From the UHGV virus genome UHGV-0166592: DNA of 14,585 nt; one strand, 5' to 3'. Under the pieces are notes generated by a model, which saw only the letters and a program-made list of their open reading frames with translations, was not told the DNA's origin and ran no database searches. Of this stretch, positions 1,187 through 7,296 are shown piece after piece (within the stretch, counting starts at the first letter, position 1; the number at the start of each line of letters is the position of its first letter). This DNA is from a virus. The translations under genes and the position numbers were made by a program.

Positions 1187-1263
1187 GCGCCCTTAGCTCA
1201 GTTGGATAGAGCAACGACCTTCTAAGTCGTGGGCCGCAGGTTCGAATCCTGCAGGGCGCGCCA
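1187..1263 (+). tRNA. argU: tRNA-Arg (anticodon UCU)
   Basis: 77-nt sequence GCGCCCTTAGCTCAGTTGGATAGAGCAACGACCTTCTAAGTCGTGGGCCGCAGGTTCGAATCCTGCAGGGCGCGCCA. It has a cloverleaf-compatible acceptor stem, a TCT anticodon in the CTTCTAA loop, a GGTTCGAATCC T-arm and encoded CCA. I recall argU as a lambdoid (DLP12-type) integration site. Confidence 0.95.
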
Positions 1264-1278
1264 TTACAATTCAATCAG

Positions 1279-2442
1279 TTACGCCTTCTTTATATCCTCC
1301 ATAATTCCAGAGTGGGACATATTTGGGACATTATCACCAAAAATGTCGTCTATTTTCCTCGCATGCTCTGTCAAATGATTAGGCGCAAGGTGAGCATACC
1401 TACGAACCATTTCTATGGACTCCCATCCGCCCATTTCCTGAAGCACTGATAATGGGACGCCTGACTGAATCAGCCAGCTTGCCCAGGTGTGTCTGAGGTC
1501 ATGGAAACGGAAATCTTCAATTCCTGCACGACGACAAGCTGATAGCCATGATGTCTTGCTGTCGATGCGCATCTTCCTGACCGCAGGCGTTGATGTTCCA
1601 TCTGCTCGCTTAGCCGCCTTGGTATGTACAAACACCCATTTGTGATGCTTGCCTATTTGATCACGCAACACTTTACAGGCGGTATCGTTCAGCGCCACAC
1701 CAATGGCGCGGTTTGATTTGCTCTCTTCTGGATTCACCCAGGCAACTCGTCGCTGCATGTCGATTTGTTGCCATTCCAGATTTATGATGTTCGACTTTCT
1801 CAGACCAGTTGCCAGCGCAAACTTGACGACAGATTTCAGTGGTTCGGGGCACTCATCAATAAGGCGTTTTGCTTCCTCCTTTTCCAGCCATCTGACTCGC
1901 TTGTTTCTGACCGCTGGTATCTTGATGACAGGCGCTTTTTCCAGCCACTTCCAGTCGCGTTCTGCAGCACGGAGAATGGCCTTTATCATGGCAAGATGCT
2001 TTGCCTTTGTCTGAGTTGATACTGGCTTTGGTTCATAAACAGGCGGTTCTTTACCTTTCCTGATGGCGGCCCGAACTTTCTGTTTCCATATTTCTTTCGT
2101 CTTTCTGTTATGCATTCTGCTTACAGCAGAGTAAATCTTTGCCTCCGAGATATCTTTAAGCCTTATACCCTCAAAATGTTCAAGCCAGAACTCAATCCGG
2201 CTTTTATCTGAATCGAGAGATTTTTTATCAGCCTTTTCCTCAAGCCATCTTAGGCAGGCCTCTTCAAAAGTGACATCAGGTAAATCCCCTAGCTTTTCTA
2301 CTCGCCAGAGTTCTGCTTTTCGCTTGTCGTGCAACTCCTGAGCTTGCCGCTTGTCCTTTGTGCCAAGAGATTCCTTAATTCGTTTCCCGCCCGGGAGCGA
2401 ATACGAGGCATACCATATTTCATTTCTGCGGAAGAGTGACAT
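1279..2442 (-). CDS. int: Tyrosine-type site-specific integrase (lambdoid, IntD-like)
   Basis: 387-aa ORF with the C-terminal catalytic region [39 protein letters not shown] (R..H..R..Y signature of tyrosine recombinases). The N-terminus [31 protein letters not shown] matches my recollection of DLP12 IntD. RBS GAGGAAAG precedes the ATG at 2442. Confidence 0.95.
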
Positions 2443-2669
2443 TTTCTTTCCTCTGTTATGCCATCACCCGCGCTCACCTGGACAGTATGCAGCGGAGACT
2501 GAAGAGCCGCAATGCAGGCTTGTCGTGTTGTGAGGTAAGGAGATTTATTCTTAGTGGGATCTTTACGTGTTGCCTGAAGACGCCCTGTGCGTATCCAGTT
2601 AATGGCAGTCGGTCTGGATATCTTGAGAAAATGACAGGCCTCATCGAGTGTGAGGCTGTATGGCTCCAT
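2298..2669 (-). CDS. xis: Excisionase-family DNA-binding protein (Xis/AlpA-like HTH)
   Basis: Start chosen at the internal ATG 2669..2667 ([37 protein letters not shown]...), preceded by GAGGTG and overlapping the upstream stop as TAATG. The reading frame has no stop until 2298, so it runs 145 bp into int in another frame; the true C-terminus is uncertain. Confidence 0.55.
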
Positions 2670-2974
2670 TATTTCACCTCTTGTTGTGACATTGTTGAAA
2701 AATGGATACCAGCTCGTTGCTGCCAGACGATCCAACCGAGAGTCATATCCCATGCCATGTATTCGTTATCGCCGTTTTTTGCTCTCCGACGATCTACTAA
2801 GTCACCGAAACGCTTTTCCATGAATAATTCATAAGCTTCGCGTTCATCTGGTTCTACTTCCAGAGATAGGAGTGCGATTTCATAAGCACGGCGCTCAATA
2901 TCGTCTCGCACGTCAAGGCTGCTGATACGCTCTTTAATTTCTTTAATCAGTTCTTTGTCGGTAAAAGTGGTCAT
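2669..2974 (-). CDS. YfdT-like prophage protein, function unknown
   Basis: 101-aa ORF, translationally coupled at both ends (TAATG overlaps). The length and position match my recollection of the CPS-53 yfdP-yfdT block (YfdT is 101 aa). Confidence 0.65.
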   Translation of the reverse strand: MTTFTDKELIKEIKERISSLDVRDDIERRAYEIALLSLEVEPDEREAYELFMEKRFGDLVDRRRAKNGDNEYMAWDMTLGWIVWQQRAGIHFSTMSQQEVK

Positions 2975-3336
2975 TATGCTCCAGCCTCCGGTGCTTTTGG
3001 CATTACTGCCCAGTGAGTGATATTGACGTTTTCAAGGTCCCCGACCTGAAATGTCCACTGCCATTCTCCGGTTTCTTTTTGTCCCCAGGTGTACCAGAGA
3101 GAACGCCAGCCAATCAGCCAGCCTTCTCCATTAGCATCAAATAACAGAACACTTTCATTTGCTGGCGGCAGTTCAGCTGACACTGGTATTACTTTGTTTT
3201 CCAGTGCTGTACATTTAGCTTCAAGCGCATCGAATTTACGTACCAGGTATTCAGCATCTGTTTCATTCACTTTCAGATCTCGCGGTACACATCTCCCACG
3301 AAGAAACCCTTCCATTTCGAAAACATTCATGCGCAT
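2974..3336 (-). CDS. YfdS-like protein (DUF551-like C-terminus)
   Basis: 120-aa ORF. The C-terminal ...NITHWAVMPKAPEA resembles the W-x-P-x-P end I associate with DUF551 phage proteins. Its start overlaps the stop of the upstream HD-domain gene. Confidence 0.65.
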   Translation of the reverse strand: MRMNVFEMEGFLRGRCVPRDLKVNETDAEYLVRKFDALEAKCTALENKVIPVSAELPPANESVLLFDANGEGWLIGWRSLWYTWGQKETGEWQWTFQVGDLENVNITHWAVMPKAPEAGA

Positions 3337-3863
3337 TTGCGTAACTCCGATAAATCGTTAAAACGTTCCATAAACATCCCGTAGGCATGACCCGGTGCCA
3401 GTGGAATCACGTTGAACATCTCTGTTGCCGGGATGCCTTCCAGTACAGGCCAGAAAGAGCCATCATCAAGCCCGAGATCGCGGCGTTCGGTTGCCAGCAT
3501 AATGAGATCGGCATATTTCACTGGCGTGCTCATAACAGGAGGTAACCCGTATTTCTCACGGATTACGGCGTCTATTTTTTCTTCCATACGTTTATAGTCA
3601 GGAAGAAGTCGTTTCAGTGGTGCGGGGATGTCCTGGCAATATGCTTCTGTTGCATCATGCATTAAAGCTTCAAAAGCAAATTCCTGCGGCACCAGCTGGC
3701 TGCAAAGAACCGCATGTTGGGCGACGCTGTAGAAGTGCGAAAGATGACCGGCAAAGCGACAGATATTTGAAAGGGAAACCGCGATATCGTTAATAACGAT
3801 GTCGTCTTTATTTATCCTGTCATAATAAAAATGCTTCCCGGAAAAAGTTTTAATAAATGACAT
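3327..3863 (-). CDS. yfdR: HD-domain phosphohydrolase, YfdR-like (5'-nucleotidase family)
   Basis: Start placed at ATG 3863..3861 (MSFIKTFSGKHFYYD...), which has RBS GGAGAA 5 nt upstream and gives 178 aa. The ORF-track start at 3890 is a GTG. Carries an HD-type metal-binding region (NICRFAGHLSHFYSVAQHAVL ... LMHDATEAY). Confidence 0.8.
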   Translation of the reverse strand: MSFIKTFSGKHFYYDRINKDDIVINDIAVSLSNICRFAGHLSHFYSVAQHAVLCSQLVPQEFAFEALMHDATEAYCQDIPAPLKRLLPDYKRMEEKIDAVIREKYGLPPVMSTPVKYADLIMLATERRDLGLDDGSFWPVLEGIPATEMFNVIPLAPGHAYGMFMERFNDLSELRKCA

Positions 3864-3956
3864 TTTGTTCTCCACGTATATGCACTGCACCGCGCTGAAT
3901 TCTGGTAAAAGGAAGCCCTAACCATCCGGTGATTATTGAGTTAATTACGTTTCCAT

Positions 3957-3978
3957 AAATGCCCCCGCAGGGGCATTT
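3957..3978. repeat. Perfect 9-bp inverted repeat AAATGCCCC-CGCA-GGGGCATTT between the yfdQ-like and yfdR-like genes
   Basis: Arms 3957..3965 and 3970..3978 are exact reverse complements. No U-run follows on either strand, so it is not a classic intrinsic terminator. Confidence 0.6.
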
Positions 3979-3990
3979 GCAGTAATGAAA

Positions 3991-4815
3991 TCAGGCGGTG
4001 AAAGTACCAATAAAGGTTTCTACTTTGCTGTCTTTGAATTTCTCAACAAGCAGATCACGAAATTCGTTAGCCATTTCTTCCTGCACCGCTTCCAGCTGAA
4101 TAATGCGCAGAACCAGTACAGGACGATCGCCAGTGATAATGCTGAGGCGTAATTTAAACGGACGTTCTTTCAGACCTTCAAACGGAACGCATTTAAATTC
4201 AAATGCCACTGGCATAATGTCTTTGGTCTTCGCTTCGACAGACTCCATCAGGGAGCGTTTGCCGCTGAAGTCATTATCTTCAAAATCAGCGGTCTGGTTT
4301 GCTTCAATCGTGATTTTACGGACTGCCGCAGCCGCTTTTGTTGCTTGAATGGCGTCACCATTAGCATCAAAGCCCACAAGGTAGTCGGCCCAGTCTTCGA
4401 TCCATTCTGCCAGTGACTTCTGGGAGTTACGCTCGCCGTTAACAGACAACAGAGCAGAGAACGGTGCTGTCTTTTTCAGTTTGAGAGTGGCAGTGTTATC
4501 TGCGTGACCTGGTTCATCAATAGTACCCAGGTTAAGCACACTGACGGCTCGCATATTATCGGCATCGATAAAGCAGCGGGTGCCTTCATCTGCAAGATCT
4601 TTAGAATAACGGGTAAAGTCATCGATGCTGGCAGTGGAAAGCGCACCACGGAAACGGAAGCGATTTAAATTAAATTTTTCCAGATCATGAATGCGGAAAT
4701 TCTCAGGCAATGCCACAGCATCGGCACCAATCTTACTGATAATTTCATTAACACCCTGAGCAGAAATAAGGGCATGGATTTGATTAATTGCGGTTGCGTC
4801 TAAGTTCTGAGACAT
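3991..4815 (-). CDS. yfdQ: YfdQ-like protein (DUF2303-type), function unknown
   Basis: 274-aa ORF with RBS GAGGA 7 nt upstream of ATG 4815; the length and translation fit my recollection of CPS-53 YfdQ. Confidence 0.75.
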
Positions 4816-4880
4816 AATAAGTCCTCACTATATAAAGATATTCAGTGATGAGATAAATAATCAGTTTATTAAGAACGATA

Positions 4881-5243
4881 TTAATGACCTGCTGCGCGTA
4901 GTTTTCCGTCAGGTTCACCGGCAAGAGTCAGTAATTGTCCCTGGTCTTCCTGCAGAATAGTCAGGCGACCACCGCGATTGACATACATCGGCGTTTCGGT
5001 GGTGTCTTCTTCGGAAATTTTCCCGCGGTTAGTTGGGCGAACATATGAGAGTTTGTGTTTGATTTTCACACGGTTCTCATCAAACGGTTCGATTTCCAGA
5101 TTGAGTGAGACCTTCCCTTTGGTTTTCGTGTTCATCACACCGGAAGCGACCTCACTGAGAACTGCGCCGATTTTGGTTTCAAATACGCCGCCGTCCAGCT
5201 CCCCGATAAATGCCTGCACATCAGTACTGCGTTCGCTAGCCAT
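4881..5243 (-). CDS. YfdP-like protein, function unknown
   Basis: Start placed at ATG 5243..5241 (MASERSTDVQAFIGELDGG...), which has a strong RBS GAGGAG 6 nt upstream and gives 120 aa. The upstream extension of the ORF track to 5408 lacks an RBS. Confidence 0.65.
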   Translation of the reverse strand: MASERSTDVQAFIGELDGGVFETKIGAVLSEVASGVMNTKTKGKVSLNLEIEPFDENRVKIKHKLSYVRPTNRGKISEEDTTETPMYVNRGGRLTILQEDQGQLLTLAGEPDGKLRAAGH

Positions 5244-5292
5244 TTTGCTGCTCCTCATCATATCGACCCTGCAAGGTCGGTTGGTTTCTCCA

Positions 5293-5379
5293 CAAAACAG
5301 AGAAGAACACCTGCGGTGGCAGCCGCCCGGATGGATTGGGTTATGAGCCCGTCGTCCGGTGATGCTCTTCTCTGTTTTG
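5293..5379. repeat. Long inverted repeat: 14-bp arms CAAAACAGAGAAGA / TCTTCTCTGTTTTG separated by 59 nt
   Basis: Arms 5293..5306 and 5366..5379 are exact reverse complements. It lies in the 5' leader of the yfdP-like gene on the minus strand. Confidence 0.75.
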
Positions 5380-5380
5380 C

Positions 5381-5432
5381 AAAAAAGGACGGTACCAGCC
5401 GGAAGCAAGGGTACAAACTGGTACCGCCAGGA
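5381..5432 (-). terminator. Candidate intrinsic terminator in the left-operon leader
   Basis: On the minus-strand RNA a 9-bp stem (CGGUACCAG / CUGGUACCG, arms 5418..5426 and 5390..5398, extendable to 11 bp with one G-U pair) is followed by UCC and then UUUUUU (complement of 5381..5386). The 19-nt loop is larger than typical. Confidence 0.4.
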
Positions 5433-5645
5433 CTACACACAGCATAAAGTTGTGGTGCCGGGTGCCTCCCGGTGCCTGGCGAAGGTTGCACACCAGGCGG
5501 GTGGGTATCCACAGAAGGTCGACTGTCAGCCTCAACCTTAACCCGCGTGCGCTGAGCCGCATTCACCACAACGCTAAGGATTCTCTCTGGTTGAAAATAC
5601 TTAGCTGTTATGTGCCTGCTTTTAGCCACATCAGGCGAGGTGGAC

Positions 5646-5697
5646 CTGGTTATTCCCCAACAACAAGGATTCGGTTAATCTGGTTATCCCCAACAAC
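5646..5697 (+). repeat. Two direct repeats CTGGTTAT(T)CCCCAACAAC upstream of the 144-aa gene
   Basis: Copies at 5646..5664 and 5680..5697 are identical except for one extra T and are 34 bp apart. They end 16 nt before the ATG at 5713 and are a candidate regulator-binding site. Confidence 0.6.
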
Positions 5698-5712
5698 GCA
5701 AAAGGAAAAGAA

Positions 5713-6147
5713 ATGTCCGGTAATATCTACACGCTGTACAAATCCCACTGTGAAAATGTTGGAAAGTATCGGGGCATTGAAATCAGTGGGGTAGTGTCAT
5801 CAGTCGAAATAAGCAAAGTGGAATCAAGGGCAACATTACTTACTCTTCTGGACCTTGTCTTACATGAGCACCGGAAGAAATTCGGTACTCCCTATAATCA
5901 GTTGAATGGGAAAAAGGCTCTGGTTCACCTTATTCTGATGAAGCATCACTGGATGCCAAAACAGATTAATGAGATGAAATTTGATGAACTTCTTCTTTCA
6001 ATTCAGGATGAACTCACACTTGATAAAATAAGCGTAACCGCCCAGAAATTTTTAGATTATCGAGACTGGAGATCACAAATTCATCACTTTGATGATTTTG
6101 ACGAAAATGAATGGGATCCTAATTTGTCTGCACAATATCTAAAGTAA
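5713..6147 (+). CDS. Hypothetical 144-aa protein; AT-rich cargo gene in reverse orientation
   Basis: 435-nt ORF in an AT-rich segment, with RBS AAAGGAAAAG before ATG 5713. A 144-codon ORF in AT-rich DNA is unlikely by chance. I recognise no family. Confidence 0.6.
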   Translation: MSGNIYTLYKSHCENVGKYRGIEISGVVSSVEISKVESRATLLTLLDLVLHEHRKKFGTPYNQLNGKKALVHLILMKHHWMPKQINEMKFDELLLSIQDELTLDKISVTAQKFLDYRDWRSQIHHFDDFDENEWDPNLSAQYLK

Positions 6148-6325: not shown

Positions 6326-6370
6326 TTCACATCTCCTCAAGTTATCAGTTACTTGTTGATGGGGACCAGA

Positions 6371-6383
6371 TTGTTAAAGAGCT
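6371..6383 (-). promoter_or_regulatory. boxA-like antitermination element (minus-strand RNA AGCUCUUUAACAA)
   Basis: The 12-mer GCTCTTTAACAA on the minus strand is identical to the rrn/consensus boxA core as I recall it (TGCTCTTTAACAA). It lies directly 3' of a hairpin and 45 nt upstream of the RBS of the 68-aa ORF. Confidence 0.45.
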
Positions 6384-6410
6384 AAGCGTCCTGTAGGGCG
6401 CTTTTTTGTT
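6384..6410 (+). terminator. Intrinsic terminator on the plus strand, downstream of the 144-aa gene
   Basis: Stem GCGTCC / GGGCGC (6386..6391 and 6396..6401, one G-U pair), loop TGTA, then TTTTTTGTT (6402..6410). The same hairpin on the minus-strand RNA sits immediately 5' of the boxA-like element. Confidence 0.6.
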
Positions 6411-6490: not shown

Positions 6491-6519
6491 AATCTAACTT
6501 AACTTAGTTATTATGGCAA
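6491..6519 (-). promoter_or_regulatory. Candidate pL-like promoter with overlapping operator-like palindrome
   Basis: On the minus strand: -35 TTGCCA (6519..6514), 17-nt spacer, -10 TAGATT (6496..6491). The near-palindrome CTAACTTAACTTAG (6494..6507) overlaps the spacer and -10 and resembles the OR palindrome at 7222..7235. Further CTTAG copies lie at 6539, 6552 and 6572. Confidence 0.35.
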
Positions 6520-6572
6520 GAGAAAACACCAAACTTTTCTTAGTTCGGTGCCTTAGTTAGAGAAGAGAGGTC

Positions 6573-7199
6573 TTAGAGTTCGTATTGAACTCCTTTGACT
6601 ACACCAATGATAAGGCAATTACCATTGATAGGGATGTTGGGATACCGAGGATTTAATGGCACTAAAAACTTTTGAGGGCCATCGATGACTAATTTTTTTA
6701 CTGTAGCTTCGTTTGTTCCATCAAGTCGAGCGATGACTATTTTTCCATGACGAGGTTCTGCATCTGGATCTACAATCACTGTTGCGCCTTCTGGTATTGT
6801 TGGGAGGCCATTAGGGTTAGTCATGGAGTCACCTTTAACCTCTAATGCAAATGAGTTATCACCAATCTTTAATGATGTATCTACCCACTTGTCCACTTCA
6901 CTAAACACTTCTGCTGCCCTGCACTCAGTAAACTGCCCAGCCTGAACCCACGATATTACAGGAACTCTGCGCATGTTTGTGACGAGTTTGCCTTCAAACT
7001 CAGCACCATAAAGAATGTAATCTATTGACGTATTGAAGAACTTCGCTAATTTCGAAAGTGCCTCCCCACCAGGGGTATTGATGTCTTTCTCCCAGTACCC
7101 CACAGCAACGTCGCTTACTCCACAAAATTTACCCAATTCTTTCTGGGACGTTCCGGTAACTCTTCTCAGAGCTTTTATACGCTGACCAACCGTTTCCAT
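6573..7199 (-). CDS. cI: CI-type prophage repressor (N-terminal XRE-family HTH, C-terminal S24 LexA-like peptidase)
   Basis: 208-aa ORF. The N-terminus (QRIKALRRVTGTSQKELGKFCGVSDVAVGYWE) is an HTH; the C-terminus has the S24 Ser/Lys dyad context (GDSMTNP ... TVKKLVIDG). It is divergent from the cro-like gene. Confidence 0.9.
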   Translation of the reverse strand: METVGQRIKALRRVTGTSQKELGKFCGVSDVAVGYWEKDINTPGGEALSKLAKFFNTSIDYILYGAEFEGKLVTNMRRVPVISWVQAGQFTECRAAEVFSEVDKWVDTSLKIGDNSFALEVKGDSMTNPNGLPTIPEGATVIVDPDAEPRHGKIVIARLDGTNEATVKKLVIDGPQKFLVPLNPRYPNIPINGNCLIIGVVKGVQYEL

Positions 7200-7296
7200 A
7201 GGAGCACCATTTCTTGAATTGCTAAGTAATCTTAGTTTTTATTGACCAAAGATAGATTTGTAATTAGCATCTAATAAAACTTAGTTTGGAGGGCGT
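7200..7296. promoter_or_regulatory. Divergent cI/cro control region (OR-like) with operator palindromes
   Basis: 97-bp AT-rich interval between the divergent cI and cro starts. It contains the inverted repeat CTAAG-TAAT-CTTAG (7222..7235), the palindrome AAACT-T-AGTTT (7277..7287) and a candidate -35 TTGACC (7242..7247). Exact pR/pRM positions are not resolved. Confidence 0.6.

Follow-up and report, generated by a model that had tools for sequence, protein, structure and literature searches.

What lies between the lysogeny genes of a lambdoid prophage and the first gene of its early-left operon? The question is raised by UHGV virus genome UHGV-0166592, a stretch of viral DNA of 14,585 nt (referred to below as the window), in which the interval 5293–5432, just upstream of a yfdP-like gene, carries a hairpin followed by U6 and then a long inverted repeat. 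A first-pass annotation, made from the letters of the sequence, had compared this arrangement with a tL-type terminator that is followed by a structured leader, either an RNA processing site or a put-like antitermination RNA. The window represents a lambdoid prophage of the SfV/SfIV/ST64B/mEp460 group, and our analysis suggested that the interval is probably the junction of two RNA modules in the early-left leader of an SfV/SfIV/ST64B-type prophage: the terminator of a small RNA (sRNA) gene, designated module A, and an independent, mobile tRNA-like RNA, designated module B, which would serve as a processing site. Both modules, and the features assigned to them below, are read on the minus strand.

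The terminator and the sRNA gene upstream of it

Folding placed an intrinsic terminator at 5428..5381, composed of a stem of 13 pairs (5428..5416 with 5400..5388; 10 Watson-Crick and three G.U pairs, with a perfect run of 9 bp), a 15-nt loop, a C residue and U6 (5386..5381). The hairpin had an energy of -20.5 kcal/mol (z = -4.2), none of 200 shuffled sequences folded as well, and no T run follows it on the plus strand. It was missed by a simple terminator scan, which accepts loops of no more than 8 nt. From position 5429 onward the hairpin is common to mEp460, cdtI and Stx2c phages, and it is ~97% identical to the mEp460-type copy in which a published transcript, sRNA-17, lies. sRNA-17 of Escherichia coli K1 strain RS218 is a 193-nt, ArcA-modulated RNA that is encoded in an mEp460-type prophage directly upstream of yfdP; it was mapped by 5′ and 3′ rapid amplification of cDNA ends (RACE) and gave a Northern signal in the lysogen (PMC7719688). 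Its 3′ RACE end, ...GGTACCGCTCTTTT, falls in the homologous U tract (PMC7719688), so that the terminator-like stem and U6 reported earlier at 5432..5381 are confirmed by folding and agree with a mapped transcript end. In the wild-type RS218 lysogen, the sRNA was expressed while yfdP, downstream of it, had almost no reads (PMC7719688, Table 1), which fits efficient termination in the lysogen. Judged from sequence and fold, the hairpin with U6 thus appears to be the Rho-independent terminator of an sRNA of ~190–220 nt. The first-pass annotation was right that an intrinsic terminator is present, but its description as a tL-type stop in the leader was too narrow, as the hairpin would form the 3′ end of a discrete sRNA gene. 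Low-scoring Rfam matches to ftsZ-DE, to the hairpin ribozyme and, at 15.7 bits over the terminator hairpin, to DicF were discarded as noise.

The gene that ends at this terminator, module A (5602..5381), is best described as an STnc100-like version of sRNA-17. The published primers for full-length sRNA-17 map to mEp460 (L006:1854-2047) directly upstream of yfdP. sRNA-17 starts with CGTTGTGGTGAATGCG and ends with GGTACCGCTCTTTT, and the equivalent ends in the window are 5573 and 5381, again 193 nt. The two RNAs share the locus and strand upstream of yfdP, the closing helix, a length of 193–194 nt, the first 16 nt (CGTTGTGGTGAATGCG, identical) and the terminator hairpin (~97% identical). However, the central ~110 nt differ: the window has an STnc100-type core, CACCGGGAGGCACCCGG, as well as an RprA-like linker that sRNA-17 does not have, and the BLAST identity of the window with mEp460 begins only at 5429. 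For sRNA-17, no relative in Rfam was reported, and the stem-loop downstream of it is not described in the paper (PMC7719688).

A permissive Rfam scan aligned 5602..5379 with model positions 1–206 of STnc100 (RF02076) at 40.3 bits (E = 2.8e-7), a score below the Rfam gathering threshold of 47; a bona fide STnc100 copy in Klebsiella phage 2 LV-2017 scored 81.2 bits. The terminal hairpin of the model coincides with the terminator hairpin of the window. The window has the conserved core (UGGUGAAU ... CACCGGGAGGCACCCGGCACCA) with its long-range closing helix, together with the U-tailed terminal hairpin, and folds and the Rfam consensus both placed the core domain at 5449..5572, with a closing helix formed by GUUGUGGUG (5572..5564) and CACCACAAC (5457..5449). 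A further hairpin, CCGGGAGGCACCCGG (5472..5458), was predicted by folding to stack on this helix. An alignment of the sRNA family showed conserved 5′ and 3′ blocks, an STnc100-type core common to the window, ST64B, phiES15, P1, SJ46 and the Klebsiella-phage STnc100, and a compensatory change of the closing helix in P1 and SJ46 (GUUGCGGUG/CACCGCAAC). The segment 5400–5560, noted earlier as GC-rich, has a GC peak of 0.63 at 5440–5559 compared to ~0.45–0.5 on its flanks. Since the STnc100-type core and the sRNA-17 ends map around it, this segment would be the sRNA body. The open reading frames (ORFs) in this segment did not look like coding sequence at first inspection, and this impression held: they had no Pfam match, and their sole PHROG match, phrog_33599, lies over a structured element.

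Module A therefore resembles STnc100/PasD in its full-model alignment, its UGGUGAAU ... CACCGGGAGGCACCCGGCACCA core, its terminal hairpin and its prophage origin. A preprint places PasD and STnc100 in one family of late-region prophage sRNAs (10.64898/2026.05.13.724894), and the described copies are found in the late region near Q, stx and lysis genes, whereas module A is located in an early-left leader. On the evidence of these alignments, module A appears to be a divergent STnc100/PasD relative and at the same time the window's version of sRNA-17. Identity with PasB was considered and rejected, as the PasB Northern probe is missing from the window.

Just before the terminator lies a single-stranded linker, UGCUGUGUGUAGUC (5431..5444), which matches 14 nt of E. 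coli K-12 RprA exactly and may serve as a seed or as an Hfq site. Weak RprA matches were also found in relatives, and an sRNA of phage LLS (L009, ~1960–2010) has 26 nt in common with RprA, extending into the terminator stem. Such resemblances suggest that some phage sRNAs may copy the RprA pairing region. At the other end of the gene, a 5′ hairpin (5567–5614, minus strand; z = -3.6) uses the GUUGUG that also closes the sRNA core, such that the two structures are mutually exclusive; some relatives have longer hairpins at this position. In three further loci from IMG/VR contigs (L109, L103 and L130), the sRNA position is occupied by a tRNA-like gene with the same closing stem, GUUGUGG/CCACAAC. 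These units have canonical D and T arms, and an insert of 44 to 64 nt replaces the anticodon arm; ARAGORN called them tRNAs with an insert of 44 to 46 nt, and the L109 unit (1077–1203) reached 43.9 bits against the Rfam tRNA model.

A conserved three-way-junction RNA on a long stalk

Module B (5386..5286), delimited by folding and alignment, is a three-way-junction RNA on a stalk of 25 to 26 bp (5386..5361 with 5311..5286). The first 6 nt of the stalk are the terminator U tract, and its centre is the 14-bp perfect repeat (5379..5366 with 5306..5293, enclosing 59 nt) which had been noticed at 5379..5293 and is indeed present. The 101-nt module folded at -50.2 kcal/mol (z = -7.2), and 0 of 200 shuffles were as stable. 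The folding of the minus-strand transcript that had been proposed as a check thus gave structures beyond chance for the hairpin and the stem-loop alike (z of -4.2 and -7.2). Alignments defined two arms above the stalk. Arm 1 (5327..5359) holds a 24-nt core, GACGGGCUCAUAACCCAAUCCAUC (5353..5330), and arm 2 (5313..5326) is a variable hairpin, GCGG-CUGCCA-CCGC, that ranges from 14 to ~39 nt in relatives with its pairing kept.

We aligned 49 distinct long-type variants of module B, all collected with the 24-mer core as search pattern, and scored pairing for a structure that we had specified. The covariation control was sliding of the pairing partners, and phylogeny was ignored. Pairing was found in 95.6% of cells, partner sliding lowered it to 41–54%, and compensatory changes on both sides occurred at 10 pairs, for example C-G/A-U (26:17), G-C/C-G (34:15) and A-U/G-C at the base of arm 1 (16:29), where the basal stem covaries from A-U to G-C in 16 of the 49 variants. 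The stalk paired in 95.4% across variants, a single internal mismatch being frequent. The long stem-loop is a true RNA structure that has been conserved, and the conservation of the inverted repeat, on which the first-pass annotation had made its reading depend, was borne out by this alignment. A search of Rfam 15 yielded no match for module B even at E values up to 10. Module B is apparently an undescribed RNA element, separate from the sRNA.

The strand that carries the function could be examined through G.U pairs and folding. At one stalk position, U.G was present in 44 of 49 variants; such conserved G.U pairs would be A-C mismatches on the other strand, which favours a minus-strand RNA. 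The minus-strand fold was also stronger than that of the plus strand (25 vs 14 stalk pairs; -50.2 vs -44.8 kcal/mol; plus-strand z = -5.0). Both observations bear on the idea that the inverted repeat acts as DNA, being a cruciform, a recombination or module junction or a protein-binding site, or else that it is a decaying, functionless tRNA pseudogene. Mosaic breakpoints do cluster at the edges of module B (5429 and ~5280), tRNA-gene remnants are common in upstream variants, and the plus strand also folds well. However, the G.U pairs and the difference between strands argue against a role at the DNA level, arm 2 changes in sequence and length while keeping its pairing, and the core is unchanged in every recovered copy across genera, unlike in a decaying pseudogene. 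We consider such a DNA-level or relic explanation very unlikely.

An even less credible explanation, which we regard as extremely improbable, is that the region encodes a small protein and that its conservation is that of coding sequence. The stretch has been annotated as a “frameshifted hypothetical protein” by the Prokaryotic Genome Annotation Pipeline (PGAP), as SfIV_34 and as PHROG 33599; phrog_33599 matches residues 82–117 of ORF 5258–5629 (E = 4e-15), and several phage records annotate ORFs across module B. Nevertheless, not one frame stays open throughout the 49 variants, and seven variants are closed in every frame; measured modulo 3, the spacing between the core and the 3′ strand takes each of the possible values (25, 18 and 6 variants), such that the indels break the frame; and substitutions are paired across stems. 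Moreover, ORFs in the region have no Pfam match, and PGAP itself marks the ORF as frameshifted. phrog_33599, listed as “unknown function”, matches only that part of the minus-strand ORF 5258–5629 which overlies module B, and is probably a family that arose from spurious ORF calls on non-coding RNA.

The core and its likeness to initiator tRNA

The 24-nt core (GACGGGCUCAUAACCCAAUCCAUC; GACGGGCTCATWAYCCAATCCAYC) was identical in every recovered copy, an invariance that is partly built in by the core-based collection and yet holds across very different flanks and genera. A scan with GACGGGCTCATWAYCCAATCCAYC recovered the core from at least 120 viral contigs and 23 species-representative genomes, representing at least 14 enterobacterial genera (Escherichia, Shigella, Citrobacter, Enterobacter, Kosakonia, Mixta, Buttiauxella, Leclercia, Phytobacter, Pseudescherichia, Raoultella, Pseudocitrobacter, Erwinia and Klebsiella). 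In BLAST searches, the interior of module B recurred in many phages with differing upstream and downstream neighbours, including Klebsiella and Pantoea phages in which it is located in the late region. The upstream sRNA and the downstream gene change between phages, whereas module B is constant.

Within the core, GGG-CUCAUAA-CCC (5350..5338) forms a 7-nt loop, CUCAUAA, on three G-C pairs, and 14 nt (CGGGCTCATAACCC; CGGGCUCAUAACCC) are identical to the anticodon stem-loop of the K-12 initiator tRNA gene metY. A second type of element, referred to here as the Klebsiella type, was found at 13 loci, 5–6 nt after the last tRNA of a tRNA array. It has the same junction on a closing stem of 7 bp, and all 12 distinct sequences continue after this stem with (A/G)CCA. 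Given such an acceptor-like stem with its CCA end, the core of this type is presumably matured like a tRNA. In the window, the stem is of 25–26 bp instead of 7 bp, and ACCA follows it but is not conserved. We also checked for a fixed linkage between STnc100 and module B, and found STnc100 upstream in only one of 16 Klebsiella-type loci and IsrJ in three. On the latter three contigs (L028, L030 and L110), an IsrJ-family sRNA (56–60 bits) lies directly upstream of tRNA arrays that end in module B. IsrJ, the tRNA array and module B form small RNA-gene islands downstream of Q.

Phages P1 (C4), P4 (CI RNA) and T4 (stable RNAs of the tRNA cluster) have tRNA-like RNAs that are matured with tRNAs, and module B resembles them as a small structured RNA in phage transcripts. 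It differs in that it has neither a D arm nor a T loop and in that its anticodon-like arm copies tRNA-fMet; in addition, the Rfam C4 model had no match here. A C4 antisense RNA was observed elsewhere, in phage ST64B (L003:409-597; 79.7 bits), beside IsrK (64.3 bits) and to the right of the cro-side genes. Neither C4 nor IsrK was matched in the window by the Rfam scan.

The likeness to the initiator tRNA suggests another explanation, which we consider rather unlikely: module B would be a new class of phage tRNA-like small RNA that mimics the initiator-tRNA anticodon arm, is released by tRNA-processing enzymes (Klebsiella type) or from the long stalk (yfdP-leader type) and has, as its target in trans, a host factor that recognises tRNA-fMet. 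This factor could be a tRNA-fMet-cleaving toxin, such as the VapC/MvpT-type nucleases of Shigella and Salmonella, for which module B would act as a decoy, for example in anti-defence at prophage induction; it could also be the 30S P site with initiation factor 3 (IF3), or methionyl-tRNA synthetase. The yfdP leader would then be a convenient site for expression on induction. Phage tRNAs are known to counter anticodon nucleases. The 14-nt identity to metY includes the three G-C pairs typical of initiator tRNA, the unpaired bases are identical in every recovered copy in at least 14 genera while neighbouring genes vary, and members of tRNA arrays have a CCA end. As the closing stem of the STnc100/sRNA-17 family also occurs in a recognisable tRNA-like gene of some phages, that family would be tRNA-derived as well under a trans-acting role. 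However, neither experiment nor genomic context links module B to any nuclease or factor, a G.U pair replaces the third G-C pair in Klebsiella and Pantoea copies, and beyond the three pairs the stem is unlike tRNA-fMet, such that the match could be left over from an ancestral tRNA gene. Searches of the literature for prophage leaders that are tRNA-like, or for mimics of tRNA-fMet, returned nothing relevant.

Proposed read-through and processing ahead of the early-left operon

A likely pL promoter, TTGCCA-17-TAGATT (6519..6491, minus strand), is a good promoter match flanked by repressor operators and lies ~1.1 kb upstream of the terminator. Past the RNA modules, the early-left operon opens with yfdP, whose protein matches phrog_204; as the first-pass annotation had described, the yfdP ribosome-binding site (GAGGAG, 5256..5251) and ATG (5243..5241) follow the stem-loop on the minus strand. 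The terminator thus lies between pL and yfdP, in agreement with the earlier expectation that early transcription must bypass it. About 100 nt downstream of the pL start is the sequence GCTCTTTAACAA (6382..6371, minus strand), a putative rrn-type boxA that is identical to the general consensus and was present in 18 of the fetched loci. A hairpin beside it (6402..6385; 6384–6403) was considered as a boxB but is better read as a plus-strand terminator. The sole ORF between pL and yfdP encodes a 68-aa protein with no assigned function, and no N-like protein was recognised in this interval.

Such a leader invites the reading that the hairpin is a tL-type terminator in the pL transcript and the stem-loop a put-like cis antiterminator RNA or a nut-like site. 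pL lies upstream, an rrn-type boxA follows it, and module B precedes the entire early-left operon; with no N-like protein recognised in the pL–yfdP interval, antitermination by means of an RNA would be sensible. Module B also resembles the put RNAs of HK022 and HK639: in each case, a lambdoid phage with no obvious N protein carries a structured RNA in its early leader. However, put RNAs are ~70 nt long, consist of two stems and lie upstream of the terminators that they suppress (PMC9378689), whereas module B is a 101-nt three-way junction that starts inside the terminator U tract, ~1.1 kb from pL. Being transcribed after the terminator, it cannot suppress it. No similarity to HK639 putL was detected (local score 20 vs 18.6 ± 2.2 for shuffles), and a weak BLAST match to HK639 (E = 0.9) fell in a coding sequence and not in putL. 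Furthermore, no strong minus-strand intrinsic terminators were found downstream, in 1200–5240, and a core at the end of a tRNA array with a CCA tail is unsuited to a polymerase-bound leader RNA. The put-like part of the first-pass annotation was therefore abandoned, and we regard antitermination by this stem-loop as quite unlikely.

The first-pass annotation had also suggested a processing site. A stalk of more than 20 bp that carries a conserved RNA resembles RNase III processing stalks, and we therefore favour the view that module B is a processed tRNA-like RNA that would mark the boundary between sRNA and mRNA. Long double-stranded stalks are cleaved by RNase III in the lambda N leader, in T7 transcripts and in pre-rRNA; module B resembles them in its long duplex, which encloses a structured RNA and lies in the leader immediately ahead of the first early-left gene, and its 25–26 near-continuous pairs lie within the RNase III requirement for ~20 bp or more. 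According to this proposal, the terminator would supply the 3′ end of the sRNA, with the stem and U tail typical of Hfq-dependent sRNAs, and would confine transcription in the lysogen to the sRNA, keeping it off yfdP and the genes that follow. Once the prophage is induced, transcripts from pL would read through the terminator to reach yfdP, and a complex of Nus factors loaded at the rrn-type boxA may aid this step, which we offer only as a lead. In the read-through RNA, the U tract would pair with GGAGAA and complete the stalk, which would then act as a processing site with RNase III as the obvious candidate enzyme. Cleavage would part the sRNA from the mRNA, either releasing a stable small RNA or leaving a structured 5′ end on the yfdP message. 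Relatives in tRNA arrays would reach a similar product via tRNA maturation, and the conserved loop would engage a conserved cellular partner acting in trans.

Several observations weigh against this processing model and the assignments on which it is built. The stalk is mismatched at one position in 27 of 49 variants; such frequent mismatches, together with the Klebsiella type, which has a 7-bp stem only and is thereby unlike RNase III stalks, mean that RNase III processing cannot be a universal function of the element. Compared to the lambda, T7 and pre-rRNA stalks, module B has no sequence relationship, its apex is a three-way junction and not a simple loop, and cleavage of its stalk is a prediction. 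The Rfam tRNA model had no match in 5150–5800 even at E values up to 10, and ARAGORN did not call module B a tRNA, so the term tRNA-like as used here for module B refers to architecture and context and not to family membership. The invariance of the core is, as stated above, in part a product of how copies were collected, and the STnc100 score of module A is below threshold. The transcript ends are those of a homologue with a 97%-identical terminator, sRNA-17, and not of the window's own prophage. No sigma-70-like promoter for the sRNA was found in 5560–5720, suggesting that the sRNA 5′ end may be processed and not primary. Finally, yfdP was up 95-fold in the sRNA-17 deletion mutant (PMC7719688). 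This rise is not simply readable, since the deletion primers leave the hairpin in place and the mutant carries an inserted resistance cassette; it may reflect polar read-through from the cassette and would then be no measure of terminator strength.

The surroundings of the leader are those of a prophage integrated beside tRNA-Arg(UCU) (1187–1263), with the integrase gene adjoining. This tRNA was the only one called in the window by ARAGORN and the sole match to the window at curated Rfam thresholds. A LexA-type repressor gene is located at 6573–7199 (minus strand), and operator-like repeats, ACTAAG N CTTAGT, occur on both sides of it (6491–6570 and 7222–7287), one set lying between repressor and cro and the other immediately downstream of the repressor gene, where it flanks pL; a pR-like promoter is present at 7242–7270 on the plus strand. 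Between the repressor gene and yfdP lies ECs1072 (phrog_5286; 5713–6147, plus strand). In the minus-strand RNA, AAUCUGGUCCCCAUCAACAA (6353–6372) is complementary to UUGUUGGGGAUAACCAGAUU (5677–5696), ~660 nt downstream, and UUGUUGGGGAUAACCAGAUU is repeated 33 nt further on (5645–5663); the pair brackets an inserted block that contains the 68-aa ORF and the opposite-strand ECs1072. The segment 5611–5681, just upstream of ECs1072, is 76% identical to lambda at ~34.40–34.47 kb, just upstream of the sieB start, and also has similarity to P22-like phages; it is probably a promoter region that these phages share, serving a lysogen-expressed gene on the opposite strand. A pseudoknot considered in 5645..5612 was rejected, since this stretch lies in the lambda-like DNA and an ECs1072 promoter region is the simpler explanation. 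Between module B and the yfdP ribosome-binding site, folding revealed a small conserved hairpin, CGACCU-UGCA-GGGUCG (5264..5279, minus strand), whose stems vary among phages but whose loop retains GCAG in 51 of 57 distinct variants. In some module B variants, arm 2 has a similar loop, UUGCAG. The leaders of the window and K-12 CPS-53 have no more than the 20 nt directly before yfdP in common.

Sequence matching the window leader is carried by 2860 of the 5426 complete E. coli genomes searched, and for these the annotation can be corrected: what pipelines list as a hypothetical or frameshifted protein would be an sRNA gene followed by a structured RNA. The comparison ties the published sRNA-17 to the STnc100/PasD family and would place this family in early-left leaders as well as in late regions. 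It also adds a well-supported RNA motif outside Rfam 15, with a strikingly conserved core that copies the initiator-tRNA anticodon arm and is found in temperate phages of many enterobacterial genera; such strong conservation implies a specific partner. For phages without N, the proposed arrangement would provide a simple view of the boundary between RNA genes expressed in the lysogen and the early-left operon that is induced.

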